Assembly (NCBI GenBank): GCA_964019425.1
Contig: OZ025786.1
Location: forward strand, 1-64,000
Reading direction: 5' to 3'
Source of the DNA: Flectonema sp. DT1601
Lineage: Eukaryota
Length of the DNA stretch: 64,000 nucleotides
Shown in pieces: positions 15,349 to 61,293 of this stretch. How positions within the stretch are numbered: position 1 is the stretch's first letter; the number at the start of each line of letters is the position of its first letter. The notes beneath the pieces are model-generated. The model had not been told where the DNA came from. It saw only the letters and a list, made by a program, of their open reading frames with translations, and made no database searches. The translations under genes were made by a program, and so were the position numbers.

Positions 15349-15374
15349 AAATTCCATTTAGGTAATTTGCCACC
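15349..15374 (+). repeat. AATTCCATTTAGGTAATTTGC motif, putative YR-element terminal sequence
   Basis: Reverse complement recurs at ~29585-29610 and ~43370-43397. Confidence 0.65.
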
Positions 15375-16443: not shown

Positions 16444-18918
16444 TTACTTCCAAAGTCTAAGGTTAGATGTTTGTTCCATCCACCCTATGATCAACACGAG
16501 TGATGGAAGCCACGCCAAAGTGAAGAGAGCTTCAAGGTTAGGAATTTCGTTGGCAATAATAAGTTCTCGATCGCGATCCCACTTGCCGGTCAGTGTTGAG
16601 AAGCCCAGGATTTTGAACCTGGCCGAGTCGAGTTTGGGAGATTGACATCCCTGTAGCAGGTGAACCTGTGAGGACGGTTCGCCACAAAATGGGCAGTCGA
16701 TCGTCTTGCGCCAGTTCTGAATTAGCGGGTGACATCCTGTCCGGAAGTTCGCTATCCGTATCTCGTCGGCTCTTTCCATCCCAGGAGGGTATTTAACTGA
16801 ACGGCCTCTGATGAGGTGTTTGTAGCAGGTGTAACCACTCACGTTAAGCAGATCCTTCTTGATGCAGCGCTTAACATGTGATGATCGCGAGAAGTAAGTG
16901 CCTTTGACTAGCACAGGTCGGATGTTCTTATTGTGCGCTGCTTCCTTTGCAAGCGCGTCAACTTCATCGTGAAACTCGATTCCAATGTGTGAGGGGATGA
17001 ATTGCAAATGCACTTTCATCTCACACATGCGCAGGTATTCCAGTATCTTGAGGGACTCGGAATTCTTCTGTCTGCATCTTCCACCCAGCAGTTCATCCAG
17101 AAGGGATTTTGAGTCCGTGAATATCCTCACGGATCTCATTGAGGGATCTTTGCTAAACACTGTTCTCAGATGTCTAGCCGCGTTCTTCAGAGCATGTTGT
17201 TCAGCCCTGTAGCTGCAGTCAGCTTGATAAAGCCTAGACGCGTAAGCAGATCGAAGGCCGCTACGTGACTTGGCAATATGAGCCGCACCGGCCGCGCCGG
17301 AAGCAGGGTAGGAGCCATCGCAGTTGATTACCATGTCGACAGGAGGTAACGTTCCAATGTACGACATGAATTTTTCTTTGTCCACCGCAGGGTTCGCGGA
17401 CTTCGGAAATCCGCAGCCGTTGCTAATCCTAAGGTTTGTCGGAGATACCCAGGGTTCCATCAAGTCAGGCTGTACAAGGCACTGGCTTTCACGCTGGCTG
17501 TCAATGCCAGGAAGGAGGCCAGCCCAGTAGCTTTGGGTTGAGGCGAGTCTGTTGGTACTAGGTATCCAAGTCATGGCTTTATACCTGTAGTACGCTATCT
17601 TGGTTTGCTTTTCAATCTGACGTTTAAAAGGAAGCATGTCCGCTTCCCACAGTAGAAGTTCTCTCGGTGTGCACCTGCTGCATCCAGTAACCAGCCTGGC
17701 AACCTTCCTCAGTTCGAAATCAATACTATCAACGCTGTTGCTTATCAACCAACCAAAGCTATCGAGTGCATAAGAGATTCTCGCAGTTATGTAAAGGTTC
17801 TTGACCATATTTAGCGTTTTGTAGTCAAGATCATACGGTTGAAGGCATTGAAGCAGAGATATTCCCTTTTTCAGTTCTTCATGAATCTTAGCCACCTGTT
17901 TGTGGAAAGTGAGTCTGTCGTCGATGTGAACTCCAAGGTATTTCACTGAGTCCACGATTGGCAACAGAAATGCGGTTTTAAACCTGGCTTTCACCACCAT
18001 CACGTTGTCTTCGAGAACAATATTCCGCAACATCACGTTGTCAAGTTCATCTTGCGTTTTGATCGGAGTTCCATCAACCTCGAGAATAGTTTCGCCGCTT
18101 TGAAGCATGGGTCTAGAAGAGTTTAAGTTGATACTCTTTTCAATGTCACTATAGTCCATTTTGATAACGTTTTCCACAACAGATCTGGAAAGTAGTAATT
18201 CGCGATTGCAGGTGTCGTTGAGAATCGTATCCCTCGTACGGACTATCATCTTAAGAGCACAGGTCTTTGAGACCGACAGGGCCATGTCGTTGTCAGAACA
18301 CCATTGATCCACTTTATCAAGTATTATTTGAGCATTTGAAAGAGCTTCTTCCATGTTATGTCCAGATACTACACATGCTGTATCATCCGCATACAGAGCA
18401 GACGTCGTTGTTTCTTTCTCCAGTTCCAAAATCTTGCAGAGGTCATCAACGTAGATAAGATAGAGAAGAGGACCCAGGATCGATCCCTGTGGAACCCCCT
18501 TAGCCAGAGTACGGAATTCGCTAAAATAACCATTCGCTTCAACTCTAACCTTCCTGTTTGTAAGAAAGTCTGTGATCCATCTGATAATAACATTCGGAAC
18601 ACCCATCTTTACCAATTTTAATAAAAGTATCTTATGGTTGATCCTGTCAAACGCAGCAGTAAAATCAAACGATAAGAACACCGATCTCTTTCTCTTCATG
18701 TGCATCCTTACGACGGCATCTACCAAAACGGTGATCTGTTCGCAGGTATTTCTCCCCCTTCTGAATCCAGCCTGTAGTGGGCTGAGTGACGAATGTTTAG
18801 TGAGCCAGTGCATGAGTCGGTCATACACGAGCCTCTCCGCAAGTTTCCCAACAACCGATGTGAGCGTAATGGGTCTGAAACTCTTCAGCTCATTTCGAGG
18901 TTTTCCAGCCTTGAACAT
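16444..18918 (-). pseudogene. LINE-A ORF2 C-terminal part: RT, RNase H, CCHC knuckle
   Basis: FRPITLTS, QAGFR, DFTAAFD, GVPQGSILGP, LYADD, KYLGV; RNase H DGS/RAE/TDS/PSHIG; CPFC-H-C. Frameshifted from the upstream piece near 18940. Confidence 0.93.
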
Positions 18919-20349
18919 AGGCTTGATTAAACCTATGATAACCTTGTTTCCACTGGTACGGTACTTTTGAAGTCTTCCAGGAAGTGTTAATAATTCTCAA
19001 GAGGTATTCCACTGTTGCCGGAGTGAAGTTTCTGATCATCTCATTGTGAACTCCATCAGGTCCTGCAGCCTTGCGGGTCTTCAGGTTCTTAATCGCTGCT
19101 TCAATTTCAGCCATTGTGAAATCACAGCAAATATCCATTTCATTATCACCTTCTGAGAGTGCGGGGGCCTCTAGCGATAATATTTCCGATTTCGAGACAA
19201 ACAGGTCCAAGAATGCTGATGGGAGATCGCAGTCGGAGATGTTGTCAACACTGATATCTTTACCAGCATCTTGTTGCAGTTCTTTGGTCTTCTTAAACGC
19301 AAAGGCAAAGTTGTTACCCTTGTCAAGTTGATCACGTAGGTGGACACCCTTCGATTTGGTAGAATCAGGTGTTGACGTCTTCCACTTTCGTCCCCGTTTC
19401 CCTTTGAAAAGGAGACGTCGACGAATGAATTTAGCCGCCACTTCATGCAGTATGTTGTTAAAGAGCTTGGCATTCGCAGTTGCATCGTTGGAGAGTTTCG
19501 ATTTTCTAATTCTCTTATCGAGCATATTTCCAAAGCAGTTCCAGTCCGTAGACTTGAAGTCCCACACTACGCGTTTCTTAGAACCTATCGTGGCCCGTGT
19601 AAGTTGACACATGGGACCCAGTACGGTGTAGAGAGGTCGGTGATCAGATCCATGTTTATTATCTTCTCTAATTACAGAGAATTCTTCCAGAATCATCGAG
19701 TTTTGAAAAAATACTACGTCCGGCGAGGTACCGCCCCCCGGGATATTAGGAAAAGGCCTTGTGATTGACCCCATTTTGTTGGCTACCAGTAGATCATTGT
19801 GTGCTGCCCATTCATGTAGAGTAGAACCTGCTGGCGTCGATTTTGATGACCACACCGGATGATGGGCATTAAAGTCACCCGCGACGATTGCTTTCGTTGA
19901 GACAGGAAGATTTGACTTTCTGATCTTGCATCCCGGGGGAGCATAAATATTTAAAATGTCAATCTTTCCACCTATGTTGACCTTTACAACTTCAACATCA
20001 TTTAAGTGAGGCGGAAGTACAATATCAGAACGCTGCTGAGTGTGGCATTTTTTCACCATAGAAATAACCCCTCCACCTCGTGTTGCCCTATCATTCCGAT
20101 AGGTGAAATTACATCATTCGTCCAAGTCTCCTGTAGGCACAGTACGTCAGGCGCATAGGCATTTAGCAGCTTGTGAATATAGGCGCCTTTGTTCCCCATC
20201 GATCGACAGTTCCAGCTCAGTAGAGATATGAGAGAGTTGTCAGGGCCAAGGTTGCGTTCGACGTCGCCTGCCTTTAGCAGCAGTTCACGAGCCGTATCCT
20301 TTTCCACAAGTGAGTTGGTCGGACTGAGTTCATCCTCATCGTCATCTAG
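18890..20349 (-). pseudogene. LINE-A ORF2 N-terminal part: 2A-like peptide and APE endonuclease, with a frameshift/deletion near 20060-20100
   Basis: LLLKAGDVERNLGP, SWNCRS, LQETW, NIYAPP, GDFNAHH, SPDV, SDHRP, KAAGPDGV. Confidence 0.9.
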
Positions 20350-22039
20350 TCAGTTGAGATCAAAGTCCGAATCGTTACTTTCCATTTCTACGTCACGGTT
20401 CTTATCACTATCCTGCTTAGCAGCAGATTCGGTGGGCGGTGTTGTTGTTTGTGCTGTTGCTGGTGCTGGCGTTGGTGTTGGTGCTGATGGTGCTGGCGCT
20501 GGTGTTGGTGCTGATGTCGGCTGCTGAGTTGGCTGTTGTGGTTGAGGAGTTGTTTTTTGTCTCTTCAGGGTTCCCGTTAGTTTTTGAGCCGCGTCGCCTG
20601 GGTTGTAGGTTGGGCCTAGCGGTTTTCTGTCAGTTCGTTTAACTTCTTTGTTTATCACAAGGTATTCATTAGTACCTATGCTTACGAAGTTGGGCGGTTG
20701 AGATTTCGCAATTGCAACAATTGTAGTACTCCCTCCTTTATGGAAAGAAGCAACAACTGTGTGTTCCCAGTTGTGTGAAGACTTCAAGAAGTCGCTGATC
20801 TGCGCTGTCGAGTACTTACGAATCGCCATCGAATTTATAACAAACCTGTCGCCCGAGGGCAGTGCAGGCTTGATTGCCGCGTTGAGCTTAATGCTGACCC
20901 TGATATTACAGTCAGGGTGGACTCGGAGTCCAAAACAGCTTTTAAACCTGCACATGTAGAATTTTCCTTTGAATTCATCAAGTGCAGAAGTCTTGGACTT
21001 CGCTGCCAGGAAGCCAAGGTCGTTTTTGAATTGCAACGTTGGCCAAACGTCACTTCTGTTTGACTAATTTGGGTTTTTGAAAAAGACATTCTTGGGTTTG
21101 TCAGTTTCGGGTTCGCTGTTGTTGTATTCCAGAACCTCGTGTACTTGGTTTCTGGGGACTCTGAAAGCCATCGAGGTGTGGGACTTGTTTTTTTTGTAGC
21201 TAAAGGGGTCCGCCTTTAGCTAGAATATCGGTCGTTTTGACGGTCAATTCTTTCTCAGCTGATTTTCCCCAGTCTTGGATGAATAGAACTGGGTTGGGAG
21301 TTGGAATCTGGTGGCTAGTTGCTGCTTTAGAAAAGTCGTCACCAAATACGTGCGTGTAAAATACGCGCCTGATCTCGCAGACGCCACCCTCTTTTATCAC
21401 CGGTAATGCTACTGGAACGGTGCTCTTTGTGAGCGGGATTTTGCTGATAGCAGCCCAACGGCCGCTCTTCTTTGTTTGGCGGAGTGCTTCTAAGTCTAGC
21501 TTCGAACAAACTAAAACAAGACCAGAGGTAAGGTTGTTTGTAGCATTAGCTGCTACGTCGTAACTGATGGTGGCCACAGTGCCTGCCCACGCACCGTGAA
21601 TGTGCCACTCCGGGTAGCTTGCTTTTGCTTTTCCCTTCGTGGCTTGATTGTCCTTCATTGCTGTCGGTATCGGCAATGAGAACGGCTTCGTACTCGTCTG
21701 TTGATTAGAAGCTGTAGATGCTCCTGTAGTTGGTTGGTTGACACCTGTGGTTGAGGGTGTCGTCGCTTCTGCTGCCGTCGTCGCGGTCGCTTCCGTCCCA
21801 CCACTCCCATCGAGTGTGTCCGGTGTCCTCCTCTTCATCTCCGGGTTCCCACCTTCTGACCCAGCTACGAATTGGACGATCTCCATTAGGAGATTTGCCA
21901 CCCTTCTTTCCTTCTCTTGCTCCGGGATCCCGCCTTCCCCCACTATCTTCAGGAGGTTTATTGCCTCCGATACCAACCTCCTCAGGTTGTCTCTCATAAT
22001 TGCTTTTTCCTGTGAAACGTACCCACTGATTCTTACCAA
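20350..22039 (-). pseudogene. LINE-A ORF1, split by a frameshift near 21200
   Basis: ORFs 21200-22039 and 20350-21036 share blocks with the intact LINE-B ORF1 (LPVIKEGGVCEIRRVFYTHVFG vs VPLLLDGKTVVRKAYATTISG). Confidence 0.75.
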
Positions 22040-22055
22040 TATTAGGTTGCGAAAT

Positions 22056-22071
22056 CAGTAAAGTACAGAAA
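22056..22071 (-). other. SL exon 3' remnant (TTTCTGTACTTTACTG) at the LINE-A 5' end
   Basis: 15/16 match to the 3' end of the SL at 40220-40257, preceded by a short CTGTAC duplication. Confidence 0.8.
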
Positions 22072-22076
22072 GTACA

Positions 22077-22124
22077 GGCGTTCTATCAATTGAGCTATGT
22101 AGCCACATGATCGCCGTTCCTTTT
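22077..22124 (+). repeat. Right copy of the LINE-A 48-bp TSD
   Basis: Matches 15443-15490 with one A/G mismatch. Confidence 0.9.
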
Positions 22125-22245
22125 TACCTATATAGGTCAACGTCTCTATTAGTTTTCTGACGATATCAAATATTTCTATCCCTTTATCAGTTCTCACACC
22201 CCTGTCTTCATCACAAGAAAACTTATATTTAAATTAAGTTAAATA

Positions 22246-24082
22246 ATGACTCGTGTAAATTTTGAGTTCCCTGAGTTCTTAATTGAGACTTGGAAGGCGC
22301 AGATGGGTGAGGAACCACCAAAGAAGCTCGATAATATCAATCTGGACGAGCTGGTTGCAAGCATCCCCTTTAGTATCGACTTAAGTACATTGAGATCCGA
22401 CAAGGAGACAAGAAGGTTGATCCAAGGCACACTGGCCATGTGTCTCGGGATCCCCAATGATGCGGCCAAGACACTTTCGATGAATAAGTGTCTAGTAATA
22501 CTTGGTGTGTTATCAAGGAGCCGCCTGCAGTTGGTCAACCAGAGCGCCGCCCGGATGAGCGAGCGGATATCTAAGGGGGGGTCGGATAGGCTGGTGACGC
22601 ACGACGAGGCGGAGGATGCGATGGGATCGCTGCAGCAGAGCACAGACACACTGAGAAGTGATACCAAGCAGGGGTTCGACTCGCTGAGAAGCGAAACGCA
22701 GACGGCGTTTAGCCAGTATCAGAGGGAGAGCCAATCAGTGAGGAGAAGGGTTGGGGAGGCCACTGAAAAAGCCGAGAACATCGGAGGCATGTGGGAGGCC
22801 TTCAGAGAGCAACAGACCCAACAACAACAACAACAACAAGCTAGCGTTATCCAGCAAATCACACAACAGCAGAGAGATCAGCAAAAGCAGAATGCGGAAG
22901 TGATCCAGAAAATCTTACAAGAAATCAGCAGATCTGAAGAACGGGTTGACTACGGCTCAACAAGTTCCAGTAGTCGGGGGAGCAGCACAGCAACAACCAG
23001 CACCGGGGTCGAACGAAGCGATGACACGGGAGGTGACTGATCCGTCTGCAGGCAGGGATGTAACAAAGTGGGCATCCGTTATGAAGTCAGGAAAGACCGA
23101 GGTACTGATCCATGGGATCAGGGAGCGGTATGTGAACGGTCTGGAGTACAAGGTTGGTAGGGGCCAGCTACCTGGCTTCTTCAGGCAGTTGAAGAACTTC
23201 GTTCTCGGTTTGGAGTACGTTGAAGGGTGGGAGGAGAACCCGCACTTTGTGGAGTTGGGGAACGAGCTGCTGGAGCAACTGCGGATGCAGTATTACTTTT
23301 GCAAGGATGGTATGAAGAGATCAGAGTTGGAGATGATCTTAGAAGTTGCATCGGAAGACCCTCTGGAGAAGGCAAACGCAATGGCGAAGAGAAATAGAAA
23401 TGCGAAGATGCAACAACCGAAACGGAAAGGGGGGAGATCGTTTGTCTCTACGTATCCATCGTCGGGAAACGGGAGAGGGTTCGCGAAGTGACCAGCCGAC
23501 CGGACCCTGCAAGTAACAACAAAACCAACGTTCCTAAAACGAAGGTTAGACACGCAAGTATTGGAAACATCCCCATTGCCAAAGTTAAAGTTGAGAAAGC
23601 CCGCAAGACTTATGCAGAAGCACCCAAGACAGGTGTTGAGGAGCAGCCGACTAAAGACAAGGTTAGGAGGATCTGTAAGTTTAATCGTTCAAGACCCGGA
23701 CAACCTTGTAAAATCCGCAGTCCGAGGATTCCCCAGCGGAAGGGAGATGAAAATAAGCTCAGTTGGAACAGAAGAGATCGCAGATTCAACGGAAACAATG
23801 CCCTCAGAAGGATTAGAAGGAAATGTGGTTGGGAAGATCCTGTTGGACATGATGGAGGGATGCCCAGAGGGGGCGAAGAGGCGGCATGCCGAGGACCCCG
23901 TCATATACATGGAGGCGACAGAAAAGCTTCAAGAAACACTGGAGAAGATGTGGGCCTCAAAGACAACAGCAAGCAGGCGGAACCTGTGGAGAAGATTTCG
24001 GGCCTGGGCAAGGGAAAAGGAGAAACCAGCAAACGCAAGCTCGGCTGTTCTGTTCGTGATGGCGACAGGTGTGGCAGTGCAA
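22246..24082 (+). mobile_element. 5' portion of a DIRS/TATE-like YR retroelement: gag-like ORFs 22246-23040 and 22946-23491, then the start of a YR-like ORF; truncated at ~24082
   Basis: Overlapping ORFs with coiled-coil and poly-Q. LWRRFRAW...AVLFVMATGV resembles the N-terminal helical domain of TATE-like recombinases. Paralogous fragments at 14587-15068 and 29176-29382. Confidence 0.65.
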
Positions 24083-24705
24083 GGTACTGCTGATCGTTGC
24101 CATGAGAGGTTGAATAGTCTTAGTAGTTGCTCGAGGAAAGCTTTTGGAAGTTGTTTTAACATCGAGTTCCAGATGTGGTCAGGTCCAGGTGCCTTCTTCT
24201 CCTTTGTTTTTGAAATTTGTCGTTCCAGTTCAGGCATTCCAAATTCCACTGAGTTGTCATCAGGTATTCCTTGTAAGGTTGGTTCACCGTCTTCGAATTT
24301 GAATTGGTCTGCGTATGTTTTGGTGAAGACATCTGCCATTTCCCGCGGGTCGGTTAATTCCTTCTCACCATCGACAATCTTAGTAATTGAATGGTCCATC
24401 ATTCTACCTTCCAGTTGTTTAACTTTTCTAAAGGCCCATCGGTAGTCCATTCCAGTCATGTCGCACTCAATGATCTTCTGTTTGATCATATTGATACCTC
24501 TTTCAATTGCTTCTGAGCCTGTCTTATCAGGGTCAGTCCCTGCCATTAAATCTTCCAATTCTGAATCCCTCACAGCGAAGGTACTACTTGACTTTTTGTT
24601 GTAGCCTGGGATGGCCCTTCTCGCTGCTCTCAGAATCTCGTTGTTGATCCTATTAGCTAGTTTCTGCACATTCTTAATTCTTTCTAATTTGGGCGCTGCC
24701 CTTTA

Positions 24706-25431
24706 TCAGAACAATATTTTATAATAATTCCAATCGGCACAATGCCACTTCCATTTCCATGTTCCAGAACTCTCTTTTGAATATTCATCTGTTTTGATAT
24801 CTTCGATTGTCAGTTTGAGCGGCAGGTGATCGCTGCCCCATCCCTTCATGAGTTCGATTTGTGCATCCAAAGAAATATCTAATGCAATTACATCCGGAGA
24901 GGCTGGGCTCTGTGGTCTTGTGTGTTGTTGAGATTTGTTTAGAATTTGAATTGCTGCTTCTAGTGACCAATCGTAGAAGCTGTTACCAGTAATGTTCGTA
25001 TTTCCATTTGACCAAGTTGAATGGTGTCCATTAATGTCACCCGCAATCAATGTGCCGGGCCCTGTTTTAAACTTCCATGTTGTTGCCTTGATTTCAGGCG
25101 GGTGGTAAACATTGTGAATTGCCAATGGCGGATTAGATTGAAGTACTACTGTTAATATCTCAGTTTGGTCATGTGAGATGTCGGGGTGTTTTAATATTAT
25201 CTTATTTAAATCATTTCTGACCAGAGTGACGAGTCCTCGATGACCTGACTTGATGGTGCTGCCTCGCCTGTGGATTGCATACCCTTCAATAGCGAAGTGT
25301 TTTTCTTTAGATAACCACGTTTCCTGCAGTAGTACTACATCAGGCTTTTCTTCTTTCAGTGCCCAGTTCAATCGAAAGTAATTTTCTGGTTTCAGAACTG
25401 AGCGTATGTTATTTGACCAGATCACAATCAT
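24706..25431 (-). pseudogene. LINE-C ORF2 APE endonuclease; continues frameshifted to ~24082
   Basis: APE motifs; its ATG overlaps the ORF1 stop (ATGA, 25431-25428). Confidence 0.9.
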
Positions 25432-29175: not shown

Positions 29176-29612
29176 TTAACAACTTAAATGCCGCACGGTT
29201 CCCTGAATCATTGCCCTTTGAGTTGAGTCAGATCTTAAATTCTCCAATGAAACACTAAAAGGCAGCTCACTTGCCATCAACACTAGATCCACCCGTTGCC
29301 TGGTTGGAACTTCGCAGTCAAATTTTTTCTTCCAGATAACTTCTAACACTTCAGGGAAATCAAAATCAATTAACATTGACATTTTGAATTGAAGAGTGGA
29401 AGTGGGTGAGTGGCTGTGAACTGCAGAAGAAGTTCGATAATAACGATAATAACAATAAAACTAATAACAGTACCACTCACGCCGAGTATATAATATGCAC
29501 GAGGTAAGAGAAGTGGAATAAAATACACACAAAGTAATTTCGGTAGTTTATGTTTTCTTTATCATCGGCGCTGCTTTAGGACATGGTAGCAAATTACCTA
29601 AATGGAATTTCA
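29176..29612 (-). mobile_element. 5' end fragment of a second YR-element family member (leader plus gag N-terminus)
   Basis: IDFDFPEVLEVIWK...LPFSVSLENLRSD...IQGT aligns with the 22246 ORF (VNFEFPEFLIETWK...IPFSIDLSTLRSD...IQGT). The leader is repeated at 43280-43398. Confidence 0.75.
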
Positions 29613-33950: not shown

Positions 33951-36900
33951 TCAGGGATTAATTTTGAATAGTATATCTATGTAACTCCGAGTCGGAGGAC
34001 CTCGCACCTTGTAGTCGAACCACTTCCGTTCTATCCGCTCATAGTTGGCGTAGTGGATCTTATTGAGCAGATCAGTAAATTGAGTCTTTTCTATACCATT
34101 ATAGCAGAAAAGCTCAACTGTCCACAGAAAATTGTGTATTTCCTCGATCACCGTGTGATTGTAGGCATTATCGATGGCTTGTAAGACTTCGAGCTTATCT
34201 CGAGAAGTGAGTTTCGGAAGGTTAGAGAATTTAACAAGATGCCTCAATAACCACTGTCTCGGCAGGGCCGCACGCAGCGGAAAGCTCTGCAGGTAGCTCT
34301 CCAGGTCCTTCAGCATTGCAGCTAGTTTCGGCTGATTCTCTGTGGCAAAGAACGTATGGTGGTGTTGTCCGTCATTTGTCGGGTCATCGCATTGCGGGAT
34401 GTCCGGGAAGAATTGCTGCACTATGATCCTCGCGCCATTACATCTCGAGAGAAGGTGATGTGCGTCTGTGTCGGTGTGATTACAGAATCGACAGTCAGTA
34501 AGACCCAAGGCAGGGAGCTTTACCAGTTCGTGATGACCCGTTCTCACTCGGGCTATAATAATCTCGTCACTTCTTAAAAGGTCCTGATGGAACTTCTGTA
34601 CCCTACCAGACGATGTTGCCAAGTTGTGGACGTGTCGCGTATCTCGGGAGCGAAGCCATGCTTTTCTGACTTGGTTCACAATTGAACATTGAGCCATTCG
34701 GTAGTCAAAGGGAACCTCCGTGAGCGGTATCTCAGATGACGCAGCTTTGGAAGCCAGGCTATCAGCTAACTCATTTCCAATAACACCACAATGAGAAGGT
34801 ACAAACTGCATCGTAAACGGGCGATTCAGGGTGGAAATCTGGCTGAGAATCTCGTGGTTGGTGCGCGAATGCTGGCAGAGGTACCCCTTGGCCAAGCTAC
34901 TCAGCGATGACTGGCTGTCGGATATGATGTGTATCCTGCCGTTCGGTAGTTGTGGCGAATTATCGCGGACGATATCCAGAGCCGAGATCAAAGCCCTCTG
35001 TTCTGCGTTGTAAATCATCAGAGAGGGGTTATAGCGCTGTAGCTTCGTGTAACATTTATTTCGGAAAACCAAGACCGCAGCATTCCCACAGTGGTAACAC
35101 CCATCTTTGTCCTCAAAGTAAGAAGCATCTGTATAAACACGTGCAATCGCAGGTGGCAAGGATTCGATTGATGCAAGGGCATAATTTAGGTTGTGCTCTG
35201 TGTCTGGTGACTTACGAAAGTCCCTTGAAGGCAGAACCGTGACGTTTGGAGGAGGTTCCCAAGGAGCCTGATGGTGAGGCAGGTAGAATCTGGACTTGAC
35301 ACTGGGCGTCGGGAAGCATTTCGAGAAGTGGGTTGCTGAGGATTCCCAACGTCCTTCCTCCCCCTCTCCATTGAAAAGACTCCAGGTCGGAGCATTCTCT
35401 GCGTATCGTTGGTAACGTTCGTAGATGAGAGCCATGGATTTAGCCAGGTGTTGTTTGAATGGTAGGATGTCGGATTCTACTGAAACAGCTTGGACCGAAG
35501 CTGATGAAGAGCAACCAGTTAGCTTAAGCATGAGCTTCCTGTGTATGGTTTCTACGCGTTTCCATGAGTCTCGGCGGAGATAGGGTGCATATGCTGCAAG
35601 TCCGTGGTAAGCTCTCGCTAGTACAAGGCCGTTAACAAGTTGCCTTAGCACTTCAGTTTTAATTTCGAAAGATGAGATCATCTTCAAGAGACCAATTCCC
35701 CGTTTCATAGTGCTAGTCACCTTATTCAGCTGGGGTTCGAATGTCAGTCTATCGTCAATCAGCACACCCAGGTAGCGAGCATGTTCAACACGGCGAATAG
35801 GTATTGCTGTAAAAATGTCAAGCTTCTTCTTGCCAACCCTGCTGCGAAAATCGGTTCGAGTTGATACGTCTCTCCCATTCACTGTCAAGGGAAAGACGGG
35901 ACCACTTTCCAAATTTAACTGAGCGCCAGGACCTTCGTCTAATTTGTCCAACAAGAGCGACGGTTGGGAGAAGGATTCTAGTCTTTTCGTTGATGGTAGG
36001 TACAGCCTAGGGAATCTGCAGAGACCCTTGCCGGAGTCAAATCGAGTGCCGATCGCCAGGAATTCGGTCTTGGCCTGCGACAAACTCATGTTCGAGTCAG
36101 AGAGCCAGCTTTCTACCTGTCCAATCGCTTCATTGGCCTTGGTTTCAAGGTCTCCAATCTTATTGCTGCTCACAAATACTGAGAGGTCATCAGCGTAGAG
36201 CAGTTTAATGTCTGCTTTCGTGACAGACTGCGGGAGTGTGTCGACGTACAGCCTGAAAAGGAGAGGTCCCAGAATACTACCCTGCGGTACCCCCTTATTA
36301 CAACCAATATCCTTCGAGTATGTTTTTCCATAAAGAAGCCGCGCTGAACGGTTCGAAAGGAAGTCCACTAACCATCGTACATATGGTTTGGGCAACAGCG
36401 GGATAAGTCTTTCTACTAATATACGATGGCTTACGTTGTCGAAAGCTCCGGAGATATCAAAGAAGAGTAATACGCCACATTTTTCGAAGTCTTGTCTGGT
36501 TTCCGACGCAGCGTTAGCCAAGATCGCAATATTTTCATCCGTAGTTCTGCCAGGAACAAAGCCTGACTGATTGGGGTCTAAGCTCCCCTCCAATAGGTGT
36601 TCCAATCGGCGAAGGATAAGAGCTTCAATGAATTTTGCAACAATAGAAGTCATTGAAATAGGGCGGTACGAAGAAGGTTCTGAGGGGTCTTTTCCATTGC
36701 CTTTGAGAAAAGGAATGACGTTTGCCTTTTTGAAACACTCGGGGAGGATACCTCGTCTTAGAGACCAGTTGGCTATACGAAGGAGTACCAAAATCATTTG
36801 CGGTCCCAGATGTAGAAGCATGTTATTCGAGATGGAGTCCGGTCCTGCACTGTTTGTTCTCTTGAGGGAACTGAACACAGCCCGGGCTTCTTCCTGCGAG

Positions 36901-38105
36901 AAAGGACTACACTCCGGAGTTTCATAGTCACCAGGTTTTACCTTTGGAGCTTCTGGCCTAGTACTGTCAGAGCCGCTTGGGAAGAAACGGCTTATAAGCG
37001 ACGTCATTGGAGCTCGTGGTGTTGGAAGTGCCGTCTTATCACCCCTGAGTTCCCGTATTTTTCTGTAGGTCCACGAGAAGCCCTTATCACAACCTTGGGA
37101 GGCTACTTGGCTGGGGGATAGAGGAGCTAGGATACGTTCCCTTCCCTTGTGTCGAGGCTTGCACCACTTGTTGGGTAGCTTGGCGATTGCTACTTTTTCT
37201 ACCGTATGGACAAAGTTGTTTGAGAGTTTCTTCAAGGATTTTATCTTTAATAGTCGTGTTGTGTGTGATTCCAATGTATCAGAAAAGGCTGTCCAGTGTG
37301 CATCTTGGAACTGATTGAGGAGCCATTTGCGGTGTGGTGGTGAGTTGCTAAAGTTTGAGAAAGTCGTGATATCGAAGTCCGCTAAGATAGGTGTATGATC
37401 CGACATTAGTGCGTCAGGGTCATATTGGCAAACGCTCAGACATTTATGCTGAGGAGAGTGTAAGACCAGATCGGGGGTTGTACCGTGTTTCGGAATCGTC
37501 GGTTTGAGCTGAACTAACTCCAATCCATTGTCATTTATCCAGTCAAAGACCGTTGAGCCTGCTGATTTTGTAGGGACTTTCTGTGACCAGGATTCATGAT
37601 GGGCGTTAAAGTCACCAAAAGCCATGTCACCTAGATCGTATGATGATGGAAGGCGTGAAACACCGGGTGGAATATATATATTCTTAAAAGTTATGGAACC
37701 TATTGTTGAAGCGAGGCTGAATTCCAGCGCCTCAATGTCGGAGGATCCAGATGATACGTCGTTGTTGTGAGAGATCTTTAAACCATTTCTGAAATACGTC
37801 AGTAGGCCACCACCCCGGCTCTTGGAGACTGTCTTCCTGTCTCTCCTAATGTACGAGTACCCATCCATATGTAAAAGATCACTGTTGTTCTTATTCAGCC
37901 AGGTCTCCTGCAGGTTTATTATATCAGGGTTTGTTGCGTTAACGATGGACTCTAAGGCTGCTCTAGTGTTAGTAAGCGACCTTAGATTCCAGGATAAAAT
38001 TCTCAGAGGACCCGGGTTTTGTTCTATCCCCGATCGGATTAGGAGCTGCCTCGCGGTGACCGTCAGATGGAAATCCCTGCTGGGATGTGGTTGGGGATGT
38101 CGTTG
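33951..38105 (-). CDS. LINE-B ORF2: 2A-like, APE, RT, RNase H, CCHC. The open frame starts at 38105, upstream of the first ATG (37868).
   Basis: Hand translation QRHPQPHPSRDFHLTVTARQLLIRSGIEQNPGPLRILSWNLRS...LQETW precedes the listed Met. Also GDFNAHH, SDH, YRPISM, GVPQGS, YADD, YLGV, TDAS/NAE/SDS/PSHCG, CRFC-H-C. Confidence 0.93.
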   Translation of the reverse strand, partial: QRHPQPHPSRDFHLTVTARQLLIRSGIEQNPGPLRILSWNLRSLTNTRAALESIVNATNPDIINLQETWLNKNNSDLLHMDGYSYIRRDRKTVSKSRGGGLLTYFRNGLKISHNNDVSSGSSDIEALEFSLASTIGSITFKNIYIPPGVSRLPSSYDLGDMAFGDFNAHHESWSQKVPTKSAGSTVFDWINDNGLELVQLKPTIPKHGTTPDLVLHSPQHKCLSVCQYDPDALMSDHTPILADFDITTFSNFSNSPPHRKWLLNQFQDAHWTAFSDTLESHTTRLLKIKSLKKLSNNFVHTVEKVAIAKLPNKWCKPRHKGRERILAPLSPSQVASQGCDKGFSWTYRKIRELRGDKTALPTPRAPMTSLISRFFPSGSDSTRPEAPKVKPGDYETPECSPFSQEEARAVFSSLKRTNSAGPDSISNNMLLHLGPQMILVLLRIANWSLRRGILPECFKKANVIPFLKGNGKDPSEPSSYRPISMTSIVAKFIEALILRRLEHLLEGSLDPNQSGFVPGRTTDENIAILANAASETRQDFEKCGVLLFFDISGAFDNVSHRILVERLIPLLPKPYVRWLVDFLSNRSARLLYGKTYSKDIGCNKGVPQGSILGPLLFRLYVDTLPQSVTKADIKLLYADDLSVFVSSNKIGDLETKANEAIGQVESWLSDSNMSLSQAKTEFLAIGTRFDSGKGLCRFPRLYLPSTKRLESFSQPSLLLDKLDEGPGAQLNLESGPVFPLTVNGRDVSTRTDFRSRVGKKKLDIFTAIPIRRVEHARYLGVLIDDRLTFEPQLNKVTSTMKRGIGLLKMISSFEIKTEVLRQLVNGLVLARAYHGLAAYAPYLRRDSWKRVETIHRKLMLKLTGCSSSASVQAVSVESDILPFKQHLAKSMALIYERYQRYAENAPTWSLFNGEGEEGRWESSATHFSKCFPTPSVKSRFYLPHHQAPWEPPPNVTVLPSRDFRKSPDTEHNLNYALASIESLPPAIARVYTDASYFEDKDGCYHCGNAAVLVFRNKCYTKLQRYNPSLMIYNAEQRALISALDIVRDNSPQLPNGRIHIISDSQSSLSSLAKGYLCQHSRTNHEILSQISTLNRPFTMQFVPSHCGVIGNELADSLASKAASSEIPLTEVPFDYRMAQCSIVNQVRKAWLRSRDTRHVHNLATSSGRVQKFHQDLLRSDEIIIARVRTGHHELVKLPALGLTDCRFCNHTDTDAHHLLSRCNGARIIVQQFFPDIPQCDDPTNDGQHHHTFFATENQPKLAAMLKDLESYLQSFPLRAALPRQWLLRHLVKFSNLPKLTSRDKLEVLQAIDNAYNHTVIEEIHNFLWTVELFCYNGIEKTQFTDLLNKIHYANYERIERKWFDYKVRGPPTRSYIDILFKINP

Positions 38106-40148
38106 CTATTGCTTTGACATAGAACTCCGGTGAGGCGTCCTACCCCGTGATCTGCTGGGGGTATTCGTTCTGTCCCCGTAGGGAGAGAAGGAGTCTTGTA
38201 GCTGCTTTGCCACCTCTGATTCCTGTCCCAGGACTGATTTAGACCTGATTCTGTTCAGCATCGTCTTGTTGGATGCTTTCTTCGGAGGTGCCTTCGTGAC
38301 TGGTGCTGTTGTGACTTCAGCAGTTGGAGGCTGTGCCGGCTTACCGTGCACCGGAGGTTTCATGTTCTGAGGTGGCACTTCAGTTGTTTCCGCAAGAGGA
38401 GACCCTTCCGGCGATGAGGACTGTTGAAGAACAGTGTGTTCGATCGAGAGTTTCTGCTCGTGCATTTGGTTAAGCCGAGCTAACAACTCCGATATTCTTC
38501 GTGACAGGTTAGCCACTTCGTCGGTGAGTCGGGAGTTCTGTTCCTGCATTTTAACTTGCTGTTTCAGAAGATCTTGGATGCGAGCGTCTCTGTCTTCTAA
38601 TGACGCCTGTGTCCGTGCTGACTGGTCCTTCTGTTGTTGATCTTGACGAGCCATGAGATCCGAGGCCTGTTCTGTTAAGCCCGTCACTTTGTCGGTTAGG
38701 TGGCCGTTCTGGACCTGCATCTGTCGCTGTTGTTTGAGAAGTTCTCCGATTCGAGTGTCCTTAGCGGAGTCGGATGGGGACGTAGTGTCAGTTGGGGTGC
38801 TGTTGTCCGGTGAAGGAGCAGAGTCATCTGGTGAGCTATCATCTATTGTTGAAGTAGGGAGCGATGGATATTCCGCTTCGTTACGTGGTGGCGGTTCTCG
38901 TTTGGACTCTCGGTTTATAGTCAGGAGGCCATGTCCCTTGCAGTGAACGGTGGAGAAGGTCGGTTCTTCTAGTGATTTCACTACAAAGAAACCTCTGCTA
39001 CCCTTCTTCCTGTGGTGAGTCGCTGTGTCTACAATCCAACCCTGTCCACCTAGAATCTTGATGAGGTCTGTAGTGCTGATCCTATGGAGAGAGGGACCTG
39101 TTATGAAGTAGCGGGTACCCGGTGTTGGAGGAGGCATGGCTAGTTGTCCCAGAGTCTTACGTGTATCTAGTTCCCTTCCCGGGTAAGTAACTAAACCAAG
39201 CTTCTTCGTTCCACGAAGAAGGATGACTGCCGCGTCGCAATAATCTGCAGCCTTGCGGGCAGTATTTAAGTCTGCTGTGTCCAGTCTGATCACGACTGTT
39301 TTCGGTAGGTCTTCTTGTATGTGTCTCGAAGCAGAGATAAAGAAGCCCTTGTGTTCCGCTGGAACGTGCGCTTGCAGGCGGTGAACTGCATCAGTAGGTA
39401 TACGAAGGTTCACCGATGACACCTTCGGGGTGCGGACTTTAGATGCCCATATCTGGTGACGGTCTATGGGAGAGAAAGAGTGGTTCTTCGCAAAGTCGTT
39501 GTAGATCTTCAAGGCCGCTGCAGATAGATCCGAGGTTGAGAGTGCTTCGGTCTCACCGTGTCCAGAGTGGTAGTTCAGTTGAACCACTCCGTTCGATACA
39601 GGATCCCCGCCCGAACGGACTAAAAGTTTGGCTATGGAGCCTGAGATTGTCGTTGCGTAGGCCTTGCGGACTACCGTCTTACCATCTAAGAGCAAAGGTA
39701 CTTGAATAAGGGTACCTTTACCCGGGTCTTCAGTTGTAATTGCCGTTAAACGGCCTGTGTTGCTTCGTCGTTGGAGTTGTGGTATCTGGTCTGTCGGTAA
39801 CAGAAATACAGCCGAAGCCACTGCAGGGTTGTTGATGACTTCACAGCCATCTTTGACCTTAAGGTCCCAATCCTCGTCGCGGAGTTGAGCCTTCCCCCAC
39901 GGTTTTGCTGGTTTTAGTTGTCTGGACACTACTGTTGCCCATGACGAGTTCTTCTTCGTATCTTCAGAACCCGTCTGCCTCGGTGTTTTCGACTTTGGTC
40001 TCGGTGATGGAGCCGTTCTCGGTGGAGCTGCCTTCGGTCTCGACACTGATGGCGGCGGAGGTTGCTTGTTCCTGCCATCTTGCGTGTTAGCTACCATGCT
40101 TAGCAGGGCGCTTAACAAGGTCTTCAACTGGACCCTCTTCTTTTTCAT
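38106..40148 (-). CDS. LINE-B ORF1 (680 aa, coiled-coil, Pro/Ser-rich ends)
   Basis: Position upstream of ORF2 and homology to the ORF1 pieces of LINE-A, LINE-C and 42690-43280. Confidence 0.88.
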   Translation of the reverse strand: MKKKRVQLKTLLSALLSMVANTQDGRNKQPPPPSVSRPKAAPPRTAPSPRPKSKTPRQTGSEDTKKNSSWATVVSRQLKPAKPWGKAQLRDEDWDLKVKDGCEVINNPAVASAVFLLPTDQIPQLQRRSNTGRLTAITTEDPGKGTLIQVPLLLDGKTVVRKAYATTISGSIAKLLVRSGGDPVSNGVVQLNYHSGHGETEALSTSDLSAAALKIYNDFAKNHSFSPIDRHQIWASKVRTPKVSSVNLRIPTDAVHRLQAHVPAEHKGFFISASRHIQEDLPKTVVIRLDTADLNTARKAADYCDAAVILLRGTKKLGLVTYPGRELDTRKTLGQLAMPPPTPGTRYFITGPSLHRISTTDLIKILGGQGWIVDTATHHRKKGSRGFFVVKSLEEPTFSTVHCKGHGLLTINRESKREPPPRNEAEYPSLPTSTIDDSSPDDSAPSPDNSTPTDTTSPSDSAKDTRIGELLKQQRQMQVQNGHLTDKVTGLTEQASDLMARQDQQQKDQSARTQASLEDRDARIQDLLKQQVKMQEQNSRLTDEVANLSRRISELLARLNQMHEQKLSIEHTVLQQSSSPEGSPLAETTEVPPQNMKPPVHGKPAQPPTAEVTTAPVTKAPPKKASNKTMLNRIRSKSVLGQESEVAKQLQDSFSPYGDRTNTPSRSRGRTPHRSSMSKQ

Positions 40149-40219: not shown

Positions 40220-40257
40220 CAATAAAGTACAGAAACTGTAGCTTTAGAATCGTTGGT
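40220..40257 (-). other. Retrocopied spliced-leader exon ACCAACGATTCTAAAGCTACAGTTTCTGTACTTTATTG (38 nt)
   Basis: Euglenozoan SL 3' end CAGTTTCTGTACTTTATTG with a diplonemid-type 5' half. Followed by ATC, not a GT donor. Confidence 0.95.
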
Positions 40258-40608
40258 ACACTGGGTTAACGGACGATGAACAATCGGAAATGAAAAATAA
40301 TCAAGTCAAGTTTGAGGGGATTCATCTTGAGTGTAGGTGCGTCTGTGTGAAAGAAGAATAAATCTGAGGATTCCACATAGTAGCAAAACATAACAGGTAG
40401 CACTAGGGAGTTGAGGAATGGGGGAATAAACAAACACCCTACGGTAGAAAGTCTAAAAGAGATGGTAGAAAGTCTAAAAGAGGAAGCGGGGGATGTACAG
40501 TGGTATAAAATTAGACAGGTGACGGTGATAAATATATACATCAATATAGATGTGTATGTAGGCAAGATTCGTATTTTCTACAACCTATTTGCTTTCATCG
40601 AAAAACTA

Positions 40609-42689: not shown

Positions 42690-43280
42690 CTGGTTGTGCT
42701 TCAGTTGAGCCGCCATATCAGCGTAAGAGTTGGCCCGAGGGCGCTGGTCGGTGGAATCTCTACCGCTGCGGCGTTCGCGATCTTTGTTGGATTTACCCAG
42801 TTTATCTCTAAGTTTCTGATTTGCTTCTTTCTCCGCGGCCAGTTCCCTTCGTAATCCATCTATGGTAAGGTTGAGCGTCTGCAGTTGCTGCATGATCTCA
42901 GCATTGGAAGGCTCAGAGGGCTGACTAGGGAGTTGTAAAGGGGTTCCAATCGGCGTGTCAATAGGTGTTTTGTAACACTGGCTGTTATTATCCATTGCCA
43001 CATCCCCATCCGACTTTCCCAAGGCCGGGAAATCTTTCTGCGTTGGAAGTGTTGAAGACACAGCATTCACTGTGATGAAGAAGTCATCAGCCCACAGGAC
43101 CGAGCTGGGAGGCGACGTCCGTGCCACTACTATACGATGACTAGACCTCATGTTCGTCTTCGAATTTTTCCTGCTGAAGTGGGTGCAGGTCGAAATTTCC
43201 CAACCATGGCTTTGGAGCCAACTATGGCTTTTACAGATTTGCCATAGTTGGCTCCGAGAAAGGCGGCCCACATGATCACC
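42690..43280 (-). pseudogene. ORF1 fragment of a fourth LINE
   Basis: GWEISTCTHFSRK...IVVARTSPP...ITVN...KDFPAL plus a coiled coil, matching LINE-B GWIVDTATHHRKK...VVKSLEEP...LTIN...EYPSL. Confidence 0.7.
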
Positions 43281-43398
43281 ACGAAGTAAGAGAAGTGGAA
43301 TAAAATACACACAAAGTAATTTCAGTAGTTTATGTTTTCTTTATTATCACTCACACTGCTTTAGGACATGGTAGCAAATTACCTAAATGGAATTTCAA
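43280..43398. repeat. ~115-bp repeat shared with 29500-29612 (putative YR-element terminus)
   Basis: Near-identical GTAAGAGAAGTGGAATAAAATACACAC...AAATTACCTAAATGGAATTTCAA. Confidence 0.85.
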
Positions 43399-58920: not shown

Positions 58921-61293
58921 TCAGTCCCAGTTCTCGTCTTCCTGTTGGCTGTTTTCTTCATTCGCTTTCATGTTCATAACGCGATCAAATAGTTCTGAGA
59001 AATCAACTCCAAAATCTGCTTTTGTTATTTTCGTTAAATAAGTTGCGCTGTTGACATGTTTCCACATCGAGTTGAGATGTTGCTGAACTGAAGGAGGTGG
59101 TCGGTAGACTGTTGAGACTACTTTTTGTAAAGTTTGAATTAAAGTGTTCACCGCTTTGTGTTCTTGAATTAGTAACCTGGAGTGATTTGATAAAAATACT
59201 TTTGGTAATTTATCCAACTCTTGCTGAAGGGTAATCAATGAAAGAACTTTAGTTGCGATCGCTTCATGAGACTCGTCAGTCTGAACTCTTTTAATCCAAT
59301 CTGCGAAGTCAGAGTCAGTCTCATCAGTGAATCCTGTGACAGCAGTCTTACCATCTCCTAAAGAACCTTTTACTGTTAGTGAGATGGTGTTTTGATCTTT
59401 ATTTATATCCGTCACTCGAAATACTGTGAAAGGTGGTAATAACATCTCCTGTTCCTCAGCGTACAGTGAGACGTGCCACATCTCAGCACCTTCTTGACAT
59501 TTATCAATAACAAACACTAATGAAGTTCCTTCTTTTGTAAATTCCGATTGAACCAAATCACCCGAAAGAGAAGCACTGGTAGCAGCAGGCCAGTAGACCC
59601 ATTCTCCTATTTCCTTCTCCATGAATTGTGAGTAGATATCTTCTGGTAAGTTCATCAGCCCTCTGTAAAGTTTCTTACCCCTCCAAACTGTTTTTGAATT
59701 GACTTTCGTAGTTGACAACACCGCAATAAATCCAATCCATCTTCTGAGCATCTGTTGCGCTAATTCGTTTGATGCTTTCGGACCTTCTCTGAGCGCCCAA
59801 TTAATATCTTTATAGATGGCTGGTGCTGTTCCAGGAGGAAGTTTTAAAAGTGTGTCGATATGCTGACCTTCACATGTATAAAGACACATTATAAGTAAGG
59901 CTGAGGGTGAGTTATTTGGAAACTTTTTGTGATGTCTTCGATACATTGTTGAAGCAAGCTGAACGATAGATCCGAGATTCGCACCAAGATTATCAGCGAC
60001 TTCAGTTAGAACATTTAATGTGGACGGGTACTTATCACAATAATATGATATCAGTCTGACTGCTAAAGCTTCGACTTCTCTCGGTCCTTGAAATGTGTGA
60101 ATTGTGTCTTGCCATTTATCAGATGAAAAATTACCTTCGTCAATCGTATCTAAAAATTGAATTATTTCATCACTGCGACCTTGATCAGCAGCCTCTCCAA
60201 TGTCAGAGACTAATTTACTTAAAGAACAGTTGAAACCAACTCCTTTGAATAAAGCTTCAGCTTCTTTTGAAATACTTCCGCCATCTCGAAGGGCAGATTG
60301 CATTGATTTTTGTATTACACCCAACGACTGTTCCATAATGTTCGTTTTTATCATTTCTGTTTTGTTATTAAAGTCGTTGATGAATCCTCTTCTATTCTCA
60401 AAGCTGTATCTGATAAATATTTTTACTAACGTACTAATGTATTGATATTTTATATACCGAGACCTGCTCTCTTCTTGTCTGTAAAACGCGATTTGTACCA
60501 ACAAAGAGTGAAAAGTTGATTCTATCAAGACTCTGTATGTGTACTCAGAGACACTCATGGTATCTATTTGGGATTGTAATTCTTTTACGTATTTTAATTT
60601 ATCTTTTCGCATCTTTCTTTCATGTCTTCGTGACACTCGAATATTTTCCCGTTCCTGTTCTTGCTGTTGAAGGAATTGCTCATCACAGAATCGAGGTCGA
60701 TATGTTTTTTTCATATTCCTCGCTAAGTCAGAATGCTTCAGATATAATGTTATCTCTACTAAGTCGAGAGAGTCACTCAGATCTCGATCATGTTTACGAA
60801 ACACTCCATCAACTTCTTCAGAGAGGAATTTATAATCTGGTAAAGGAGTATCAGTTGCTGTGTACAGGAGACCCATAAAACTAACCAACTCATCTCTCTC
60901 TAATGTCCAGCTGTGATTGTAATCACTCTTCTGAAATGACTCAGTCAATTTAAGTATCAGAGCTGGAGTGAAGTCGTAGCGTAACAGTTCTGTCATTATT
61001 TCTAAAGTAACTCCAATCTTACCTCCTCCAGTGATGAACATCTGGACTCCAGGTTTGCATTGAGGTAGGGGTGTTGGTAATATAAAACTAACTTGCTCTG
61101 ATCTCACTCCACTCGGTGATCGATGTCCTATTGAAACTTGTGATCCACTCAACTGCATCTGTGATGCGATTATTTTCGATCGCATTCGTTTCTTCTTCCT
61201 CTTCTTACTGTGAGATGGTGATCGTAGTAGTCTGCGACATTTCAAAGCATGTTTGTGTCGAAGTTCCAACAACGGTAATAAAGGATTTACCAT
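58921..61293 (-). CDS. EF-hand plus R-S-E-type ADP-ribosyltransferase domain protein
   Basis: EF loops DYNHSWTLERDE and DRDLSDSLDLVE; ART motifs LYRG, TSAS, EEQEMLLPPFTVFRV. Confidence 0.85.
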   Translation of the reverse strand: MVNPLLPLLELRHKHALKCRRLLRSPSHSKKRKKKRMRSKIIASQMQLSGSQVSIGHRSPSGVRSEQVSFILPTPLPQCKPGVQMFITGGGKIGVTLEIMTELLRYDFTPALILKLTESFQKSDYNHSWTLERDELVSFMGLLYTATDTPLPDYKFLSEEVDGVFRKHDRDLSDSLDLVEITLYLKHSDLARNMKKTYRPRFCDEQFLQQQEQERENIRVSRRHERKMRKDKLKYVKELQSQIDTMSVSEYTYRVLIESTFHSLLVQIAFYRQEESRSRYIKYQYISTLVKIFIRYSFENRRGFINDFNNKTEMIKTNIMEQSLGVIQKSMQSALRDGGSISKEAEALFKGVGFNCSLSKLVSDIGEAADQGRSDEIIQFLDTIDEGNFSSDKWQDTIHTFQGPREVEALAVRLISYYCDKYPSTLNVLTEVADNLGANLGSIVQLASTMYRRHHKKFPNNSPSALLIMCLYTCEGQHIDTLLKLPPGTAPAIYKDINWALREGPKASNELAQQMLRRWIGFIAVLSTTKVNSKTVWRGKKLYRGLMNLPEDIYSQFMEKEIGEWVYWPAATSASLSGDLVQSEFTKEGTSLVFVIDKCQEGAEMWHVSLYAEEQEMLLPPFTVFRVTDINKDQNTISLTVKGSLGDGKTAVTGFTDETDSDFADWIKRVQTDESHEAIATKVLSLITLQQELDKLPKVFLSNHSRLLIQEHKAVNTLIQTLQKVVSTVYRPPPSVQQHLNSMWKHVNSATYLTKITKADFGVDFSELFDRVMNMKANEENSQQEDENWD

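Follow-up and report, generated by a model that had tools for sequence, protein, structure and literature searches.

How the second open reading frame (ORF2) is translated from the bicistronic RNA of a long interspersed nuclear element (LINE) is a long-standing question, which has been answered for few elements, by termination–reinitiation. Termination–reinitiation is described for SART1 and L1, whose bicistronic mRNAs give a low output of ORF2 (PMC5972666, PMC3708506). In L1Tc/Ingi and other 2A-bearing LINEs a 2A-like (StopGo) peptide stands directly before the apurinic/apyrimidinic endonuclease-like domain (APE; PMC3708506, PMC5814959, PMC3894237), and L1Tc, from a euglenozoan host, carries APE, reverse transcriptase (RT) and RNase H in that order (PMC3708506). 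In the Group 3 LINEs of Paramecium tetraurelia, ORF1 and an APE–RT ORF2 share one frame with one stop between them, and readthrough was proposed from consensus sequences (PMC5405496). In murine leukaemia virus (MuLV; gag-UAG-pol) and in viral readthrough of types I and II, a leaky stop with a UAG-CAA or UGA-CUA context sets the excess of structural protein over polymerase (PMC3542737, PMC8310308). Here we describe LINE-B, an element on the minus strand of a 64-kb stretch of Flectonema sp. DT1601 DNA (assembly GCA_964019425.1, contig OZ025786.1, positions 1–64,000; the window), in which a stop codon in a leaky-type context and a 2A-like peptide lie in series between ORF1 and ORF2.

LINE-B and its ORF1–ORF2 junction

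Three LINE-like elements were found in the window, all on the minus strand: LINE-C (~22090–16444), LINE-A (~27600–23929) and LINE-B (40258–33951). LINE-B comprises the following features.

40220–40258, minus strand: copy of the spliced leader (SL) exon at the 5' end of LINE-B; 36/39 nucleotides (nt) match the 39-mer 'Euglenozoa 14' (PMC3795323), compared by eye
38106–40148, minus strand: ORF1, 680 amino acids (aa) plus TAG; ATG at 40148, C-terminus ...SSMSKQ, identical to predicted protein P0057
38100–38111, minus strand: ORF1 stop (38108–38106) in the leaky-type context CAA-TAG-CAA-CGA, read base by base
38007–38105, minus strand: linker of 33 codons, open and AUG-free, ending TVTARQLLIRSGIEQNPG and then P; core GIEQNPGP at 38030–38007
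33951–38009, minus strand: ORF2 protein (ORF2p) predicted from the post-skip Pro, 1352 aa; frame intact, with APE, RT and RNase H

The first-pass annotation of this DNA had placed ORF1 and ORF2 in one frame, split by TAG alone in CAA-TAG-CAA-CGA, with no AUG ahead of the endonuclease motifs SWN and QETW and with LLIRSGIEQNPG and a Pro ending 33 codons past the stop, directly before the endonuclease. All of this was confirmed on the DNA. The first in-frame ATG past the stop, at 37868, is codon 80 and lies downstream of both motifs; the other ATGs of the minus strand between 38300 and 37800 are at 38261 and 38120, in frame before the stop, and at 37864, out of frame. The last Pro of the motif is codon 33 (38009–38007) and the Pfam APE match begins at codon 37. 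The claim that the stop context is leaky stands in part: CAA-CGA fits the yeast consensus CAR-NBA (PMC4446449), and the adenines upstream of the TAG are those expected of yeast-type readthrough, but the likeness to tobacco mosaic virus falls, CAA-CGA differing from CAR-YYA (PMC3542737) and so from the type I programmed-readthrough context UAG-CAR-YYA.

The frequency of such contexts was estimated from 4576 stop triplets in the window outside its terminal repeat, a context being counted as leaky where CAR-NBA follows any stop or where the stop reads UGA-CUA. CAR-NBA follows 41/4576 stops and the full CAA-TAG-CAR-NBA occurs at 2/4576, while leaky-type contexts of any kind occur at 62/4576 (1.4%) and, within the three LINE bodies, at 13/608 (2.1%). 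The window has 29 ORFs of 150 aa or more, and just two of them, LINE-B ORF1 and LINE-C ORF1, end in such a context.

The frame after the LINE-B ORF1 stop is open for 1384 codons, to a TGA at 33953–33951. Its product matches the Pfam families PF03372 (Exo_endo_phos, APE; residues 37–237), PF00078 (RT; 475–684) and PF00075 (RNase H; 990–1122), the domain order of an APE-type retrotransposon without long terminal repeats (non-LTR) that carries RNase H, a class which we take to be the I group. A Cys/His knuckle-like stretch was seen by eye at the ORF2 C-terminus; the APE stretch had no sequence match in PDB, and no protease family was matched in LINE-B. The element is multi-copy, with an 18-member ORF2 cluster of full and partial members on many contigs, and its full-length ORF2 copies (P0017, P0018, P0024) are 99–100% identical. 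The best direct duplication at the flanks, of 8 nt, is unconvincing, and a clear A tail was not seen. LINE-B is an intact, young APE–RT–RNase H retrotransposon. Its ORF1, with relatives P0055 and P0056, had no Pfam match; ESM Atlas gave only leads below 0.8. The structure model (mean pLDDT, the predicted local distance difference test, 57) contains predicted beta/alpha domains with a weak resemblance to RNA recognition motifs (RRMs), and the Foldseek matches were mostly tandem RRMs (best E 1.8e-3, none at E<=0.001). A Gln/Leu-rich segment of coiled-coil appearance (by eye) and a low-complexity tail were also noted.

The copies and relatives of LINE-B bear on whether the stop is fixed. Four of the five members of the ORF1 cluster end at SSMSKQ (6 contigs together, probably including that of the window) and the fifth ends at 255 aa; two ORF1 relatives, ~49% identical to LINE-B, end at the same position or one residue earlier. 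In the ORF2 cluster, 5 of the 15 members listed (of 18) start at the codon-80 Met and 10 are internal fragments, the longest not exceeding 1305 aa. Since the copies are 96–100% identical, the family is young and has spread with the stop in place. A private nonsense mutation, which the first-pass annotation had named as fatal to its reading, was rejected on this protein evidence, the stop being common to the family copies and relatives. An old nonsense change in a once single-ORF element (ORF1–2A–ORF2), with copies mobilised in trans by another family, would also place a stop here, and single frames of that kind exist: in the pseudoscorpion Cordylochernes, two cases have a 2A between ORF1p and ORF2p domains in one frame (PMC13405545). 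Moreover P0122, a decayed protein resembling LINE-C, runs in one called frame from an ORF1-tail-like start into a decayed 2A and APE; it is ambiguous and looks frameshifted. Such a history is extremely improbable: the stop is at the same place in the ~49% identical relatives and in a ~30% identical family, several copies keep an intact ORF2 of 1305 aa, and no fused ORF1–ORF2 protein was found among 7985 scored candidates of 1191–3400 aa, the last being weak evidence.

The SL copy of LINE-B lies 71 nt upstream of the ORF1 ATG and is followed by AT, against GT in the SL gene; we take this leader to be of diplonemid type, and Rfam gave no match for the copy. Its position upstream of ORF1 indicates that this LINE-B copy likely derives from a single trans-spliced mRNA with both ORFs. 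Whole or partial SL sequence is present at the 5' ends of all three LINEs (minus strand: 40258–40220, 27599–27571, ~27320–27308 and ~22075–22060), which suggests that LINE mRNAs are trans-spliced and then copied back with the leader included, in contrast to the unspliced transcripts of L1Tc.

A host with a euglenozoan-type SL could in principle supply ORF2 with a separately trans-spliced mRNA, and UAG or UGA might be reassigned in this organism; stop reassignment is found in a trypanosomatid (PMC12153298). Taken together, these two explanations are very improbable. A separate mRNA would still have no AUG before codon 80, and no strong pyrimidine or T-rich acceptor tract lies ahead of ORF2 (best 15/20 nt); separate trans-splicing of ORF2 was rejected on these grounds. 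Reassignment was likewise rejected: all three stops end long ORFs, and neither the 2064 codons of LINE-B nor 2691 codons from five further long ORFs are interrupted by TAA, TAG or TGA. These ORFs had been defined as stop-free, so the weight of the counts is in their length.

The same layout in LINE-C

A second family with this layout is represented in the window by LINE-C, and LINE-A provides a contrast.

16444–22090, minus strand: LINE-C, a frameshifted copy of a large family; ORF1 homologous to LINE-B ORF1, ORF2 ~30% identical
20346–20355, minus strand: LINE-C ORF1 stop (20352–20350), context AAC-TGA-CTAG, a second and independent leaky-type case
20242–20349, minus strand: LINE-C linker of 36 codons, open and AUG-free, ending ARELLLKAGDVERNLG and then P ahead of SWN and QETW; Leu where intact copies have Pro
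25428–25431, minus strand: LINE-A junction, an overlapping ATGA stop-start with no 2A-like motif

The ORF1s of LINE-B and LINE-C align with an hhalign probability of 93% (22% identity over 317 columns). In an APE–RT tree of 23 rows, rooted at the midpoint and containing no named references, LINE-B groups with P0002 and P0003 (100/100), LINE-C joins them (91/82) and LINE-A joins next, on a long branch with 42% of columns filled (87/83). On these comparisons LINE-B and LINE-C share ancestry in both ORFs, and their anatomy is repeated in two distant families.

The LINE-C stop has the UGA-CUA(G) context of type II readthrough. Exact UGA-CUAG occurs at 6/4576 background stops (0.13%); a mammalian survey ranks it first among contexts, readthrough being 1.6–2.9% for LDHB and MDH1 (PMC4359377). 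The 3' stem-loop of type II readthrough was not found within 120 nt (z +0.43) or 80 nt (z +0.07) of the LINE-C stop. Because LINE-B had been picked for its context, LINE-C is the fair test, in which the chance of meeting any leaky context is ~1–2% and that of the exact one 0.13%.

Within the LINE-C ORF1 cluster, DFDLN is the C-terminus of 12 of the 15 members listed (of 20), and three short members make up the rest. The ORF2 cluster has 101 members, of which 40 were read and 15 listed; two of those listed reach the motif, both with GDVERNPGP, six start at a Met just past SWN and seven are internal pieces. The Leu in the window's own motif is therefore decay. Two proteins of the family, P0070 and P0079, read ARELLLKAGDVERNPGP. 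Called starts say little on eukaryotic initiation, since GTG starts seem to be given as Met by the gene caller, to judge from the P0070 start, where the window has GTG.

A 2A-like peptide stands directly ahead of the APE in LINE-B, as in the Ingi clade, and the precedent of L1Tc, named in the first-pass annotation, is borne out (PMC3708506). The core (D/G/C/N)(V/I)ExNPGP occurs once in six frames of the window outside the repeat, against 0.0003 expected; it reads GIEQNPGP in LINE-B and DVERNPGP in intact LINE-C copies. The canonical GD(V/I)ExNPGP is present only in the LINE-C family, SG replacing GD in LINE-B. The two linkers share T-A-R-x-L-L...G...E-x-N-(P)-G-P, and the T-A-R codons differ at all three sites; positions -13 to -10 are QLLI in LINE-B and LLLK in LINE-C, with fewer leucines than in most assayed peptides. 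In the sister family of P0002, whose ORF2 is 53% identical overall, the linker matches that of LINE-B at 13/19 residues of TVTAR...NPGP and reads TVTAR..LLRSGVHPNPGP (P0002/P0031).

The absence of the canonical Asp, entered as a caveat in the first-pass annotation, is less serious than was feared, since Gly at this site is a known and common alternative. Only a minority of such 20-mers skip, however. A 2026 survey of viral StopGo cores finds Gly as common as Asp and widens the core to (D/G/C/N)(V/I)ExNPGP; one of its upstream motif classes ends in (A/G/S)G, and its dataset includes viral SGIEQNPGP and RSGIESNPGP cases (PMC12846837). Rare core variants tested there reached ~90% or higher; these include the exchange of Glu for His that P0002 shows and that of Asp for Asn seen in P0123. 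A class X peptide with Gly at the site of the missing Asp gave 97% skipping (10.64898/2026.09.24.754024). StopGo works in a euglenozoan, as evidenced by T2A in T. cruzi (PMC10830525) and the L1Tc 2A (PMC3708506).

Proposed expression of ORF2 and competing explanations

In the proposed mechanism, a capped, trans-spliced bicistronic mRNA would be translated from the ORF1 AUG, and most ribosomes would terminate at the UAG to give the 680-aa ORF1p. A minor fraction, of a few per cent if viral and cellular precedents are a guide, would insert an amino acid at the UAG and add 32 residues, after which the 2A-like peptide would skip the Gly–Pro bond, releasing a 713-aa extended ORF1p ending in NPG and a Pro-starting ORF2p of 1352 aa. 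A failed skip would leave a fusion of 2065 aa. Readthrough would thus set a large excess of ORF1p, and StopGo would replace the protease that gammaretroviruses use after gag-pol readthrough.

From the sequence evidence, readthrough at the LINE-B stop is probable. Given readthrough, a real skip at the peptide is somewhat favoured, and the chance that LINE-B combines readthrough with effective StopGo is close to one half. Of the two-step recoding that had been put forward for this element, readthrough is well supported by a stop fixed across copies, a conserved linker and a second family with another leaky context; StopGo is plausible at near even odds, because published assays find a minority of such 20-mers skipping. 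With about the same balance, LINE-B and LINE-C may represent a lineage of euglenozoan LINEs with tandem recoding within ~100 nt, in which the layout was kept at ~30% identity while stop and signal were exchanged (UAG-CAA-CGA versus UGA-CUAG).

The considerations that weigh against this concern the stop, the peptide and the start of ORF2. No 3' RNA structure rises above shuffles in four stretches downstream of the LINE-B and LINE-C stops (z +0.07 to +0.97), and the leaky consensuses are those of yeast, viruses and mammals, which may not hold on euglenozoan ribosomes. The DNA compared is one copy per family, other copies being known as called proteins, and the LINE-B copies come near to one data point because they are 96–100% identical.

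For the peptide, 7/19 SGIExNPGP sequences in a human-cell library of 20-mers are classed as skipping, while 8 do not skip and 4 belong to the fall-off class (20 rows, one left out for lacking the motif); 3/6 SGIEQNPGP peptides skipped, 1/3 RSGIE peptides did so, and 6 of the first 30 (of 63) GDVERNPGP peptides are classed as skipping (PMC13405545). In another screen just 7.4% of retroelement 2As were highly active (10.64898/2026.09.24.754024). Such mixed results indicate that activity depends on upstream context and is not readable from the motif. If readthrough is real and the peptide skips poorly, ORF2p would be made mostly as an ORF1p–ORF2p fusion, or the peptide would act as a stall that lowers output. 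A 'reduced protein' class is frequent in that library; 59% of ORF2p-linked 2A-like peptides lowered protein abundance (PMC13405545); several LINE 2As are nearly inactive (PMC3708506); and the Paramecium Group 3 elements, with an in-frame stop and no NPGP in the supplement sequences, suggest that a fusion may be tolerated (PMC5405496). The 20-mer assays, however, lack the ~30-residue context of the ribosomal tunnel (PMC3542737, PMC5972666), and the core (V/I)(E/H)xNPGP is kept together with upstream leucines in LINE-B, LINE-C, P0002 and P0123 at ~28–53% identity, with variants at permissive positions. Poor skipping after true readthrough is, on balance, unlikely.

Near-cognate codons occur in both linkers, upstream enough for a minimal 2A (CTG14 and ACG15 in LINE-B; GTG15 and ACG19 in LINE-C). 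Ribosomes that terminate at the ORF1 stop could reinitiate at such a codon without an AUG, and the 2A would then trim a short leader as in L1Tc/Ingi. SART1 and L1 are described as using reinitiation, and the caliciviral form of it tolerates changes of the start codon (PMC5972666). The ATGA overlap of LINE-A lies in the same window, and a close sister family, P0002/P0031/P0032/P0038, has a Met in the linker, 30–31 residues before the end of SGVHPNPGP. For P0123, which resembles LINE-C, the called start is also inside the linker, 32 residues ahead of the end of GNVEVNPGP. P0002 starts with Met-Met, so at least one is a true AUG; this would fit an overlap of AUGA type or, equally, a stop in frame two codons upstream. 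Both families could reinitiate with the same peptide. For LINE-B and LINE-C, reinitiation does not account for the frame that ORF1 and ORF2 share in each element, or for the leaky-type contexts of the two stops, found at 1–2% of background stops. It also declines with distance from the stop (PMC5972666), the near-cognate codons being at least 40 nt away in weak contexts. Reinitiation in LINE-B is accordingly improbable, and readthrough is preferred at this stop.

The families of P0002, P0031, P0032, P0038 and P0123, with 2A-like variants SGVHPNPGP and GNVEVNPGP and a called start in the linker, may have changed between readthrough and reinitiation. On the tandem-recoding view, families near LINE-B and LINE-C seem to have adopted an AUG together with the 2A, or else an AUGA overlap that lacks one. 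An overlap of the latter type is seen in the LINE-A family, in which 10 of the 15 ORF1s listed end at NTGQS and 5/8 ORF2 cluster members start with MIVIWSN.

Wider searches placed the LINE-B layout among other 2A elements. A profile search of 50% representatives, covering proteins, returned further LINE-C-like families (P0122, P0123) and many AUG-led 2A LINEs. Viral contigs held no relative of the LINE-B linker–APE; a 2A-plus-WN pattern, matched on the motifs alone, gave 93 loci there, and the printed matches look like viral or chance 2A-like motifs. A scan of 8 of 64 metagenome parts for the 2A pattern gave 119 loci and 107 translated motifs, of which 89 were dropped for no APE similarity. 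The remaining 18 2A-plus-APE elements, several of them redundant, all have a Met upstream of the motif (18/18), the usual arrangement of 2A LINEs (PMC3708506). An upstream stop could be seen in 14 of them, and in 13 of these no more than 44 open codons precede it; the exception has 122, and its stop is in a non-leaky context. One element does have UGA-CUA, yet its stop follows just 4 open codons and has an AUG right after it. The LINE-B layout of a long in-frame ORF1, leaky stop, 2A and APE was seen in 0/18 elements from these 8 parts.

Other features of the window and comparison with known systems

LINE-A is 3'-truncated and overlapped or interrupted by plus-strand ORFs of another element at 22243–24445. 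A stretch of ~48 nt is duplicated on both flanks of LINE-C (minus strand, ~22125–22075 and 15490–15443), and its downstream copy runs on as tRNA-like sequence that was not called by ARAGORN; a long duplication of the target site, within a repeat of tRNA origin, may be the cause. The searches made with Rfam and ARAGORN found nothing. Positions 1–14587 are occupied by ~14.5 kb of a telomere-like (GTTTGCGG)n array with its G-rich strand on plus, an odd orientation for a left chromosome end. Adjoining this terminal repeat, an RNase H-like fragment (FIDASKKGWGG...; 15053–15360, plus strand) resembles DIRS/TATE-type retroelements. An ORF of 798 codons (58921–61317, minus strand) has EF-hand-like and ADP-ribosyltransferase (ART; E 3.7e-9) matches in Pfam. 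A 69-nt direct repeat, 96% identical, lies at 29498–29566 and 43280–43348, with a spacing of 13.8 kb.

If the proposed mechanism is correct, two virus-type recoding steps in series would be added to the routes to LINE ORF2, taking care of dosage and of separation with neither a protease nor another start codon. The case would further speak for programmed readthrough on the ribosomes of euglenozoans, and would explain why gene callers cut such proteins inside the endonuclease. The neighbouring families, with readthrough plus 2A, AUG plus 2A or an AUGA overlap, would form a natural series for the evolution of LINE ORF2 expression. The two junctions are compact natural cassettes of ~110–120 nt that can be tested in standard reporters.

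Full-text searches, with subscription papers and Repbase reports outside their scope, listed no paper on a non-LTR element that combines readthrough with a 2A after it. The novelty claimed at first pass thus holds for the combination only, because readthrough alone had already been proposed for Paramecium Group 3, as a suggestion (PMC5405496). Table S3 of that paper has 12 'in-frame stop' entries for Paramecium LINEs, and in two of its rows ~35–37 codons separate the stop from the APE domain, much as in LINE-B. Unlike LINE-B, these elements have no NPGP in the supplement sequences and no RNase H among the domains in the rows examined, and they belong to another host.

L1Tc/Ingi and other 2A-bearing APE LINEs differ from LINE-B in having a single ORF and no ORF1, three CR1 elements with ORF1 and 2A being exceptions (PMC3708506, PMC5814959, PMC3894237). 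The single-ORF definition of the Ingi clade (PMC3708506) excludes LINE-B, whose 680-aa ORF1 has relatives. The transcripts of L1Tc are not spliced and rely on Pr77 (PMC3708506); LINE-B, by contrast, has an SL copy at its start, a long ORF1 and a stop before the 2A. SART1 and L1 have an AUG at the ORF2 start (PMC5972666, PMC3708506), and in this LINE-A resembles them with its ATGA; no such AUG precedes the endonuclease motifs of LINE-B and LINE-C. In MuLV a 3' pseudoknot is required and the fusion is cut by a protease (PMC3542737, PMC8310308), while in LINE-B the stop is followed by a 2A-like peptide and by no conspicuous 3' fold. By analogy, LINE-B would be L1Tc-like in its 2A step and MuLV gag-pol-like in its dosage step.

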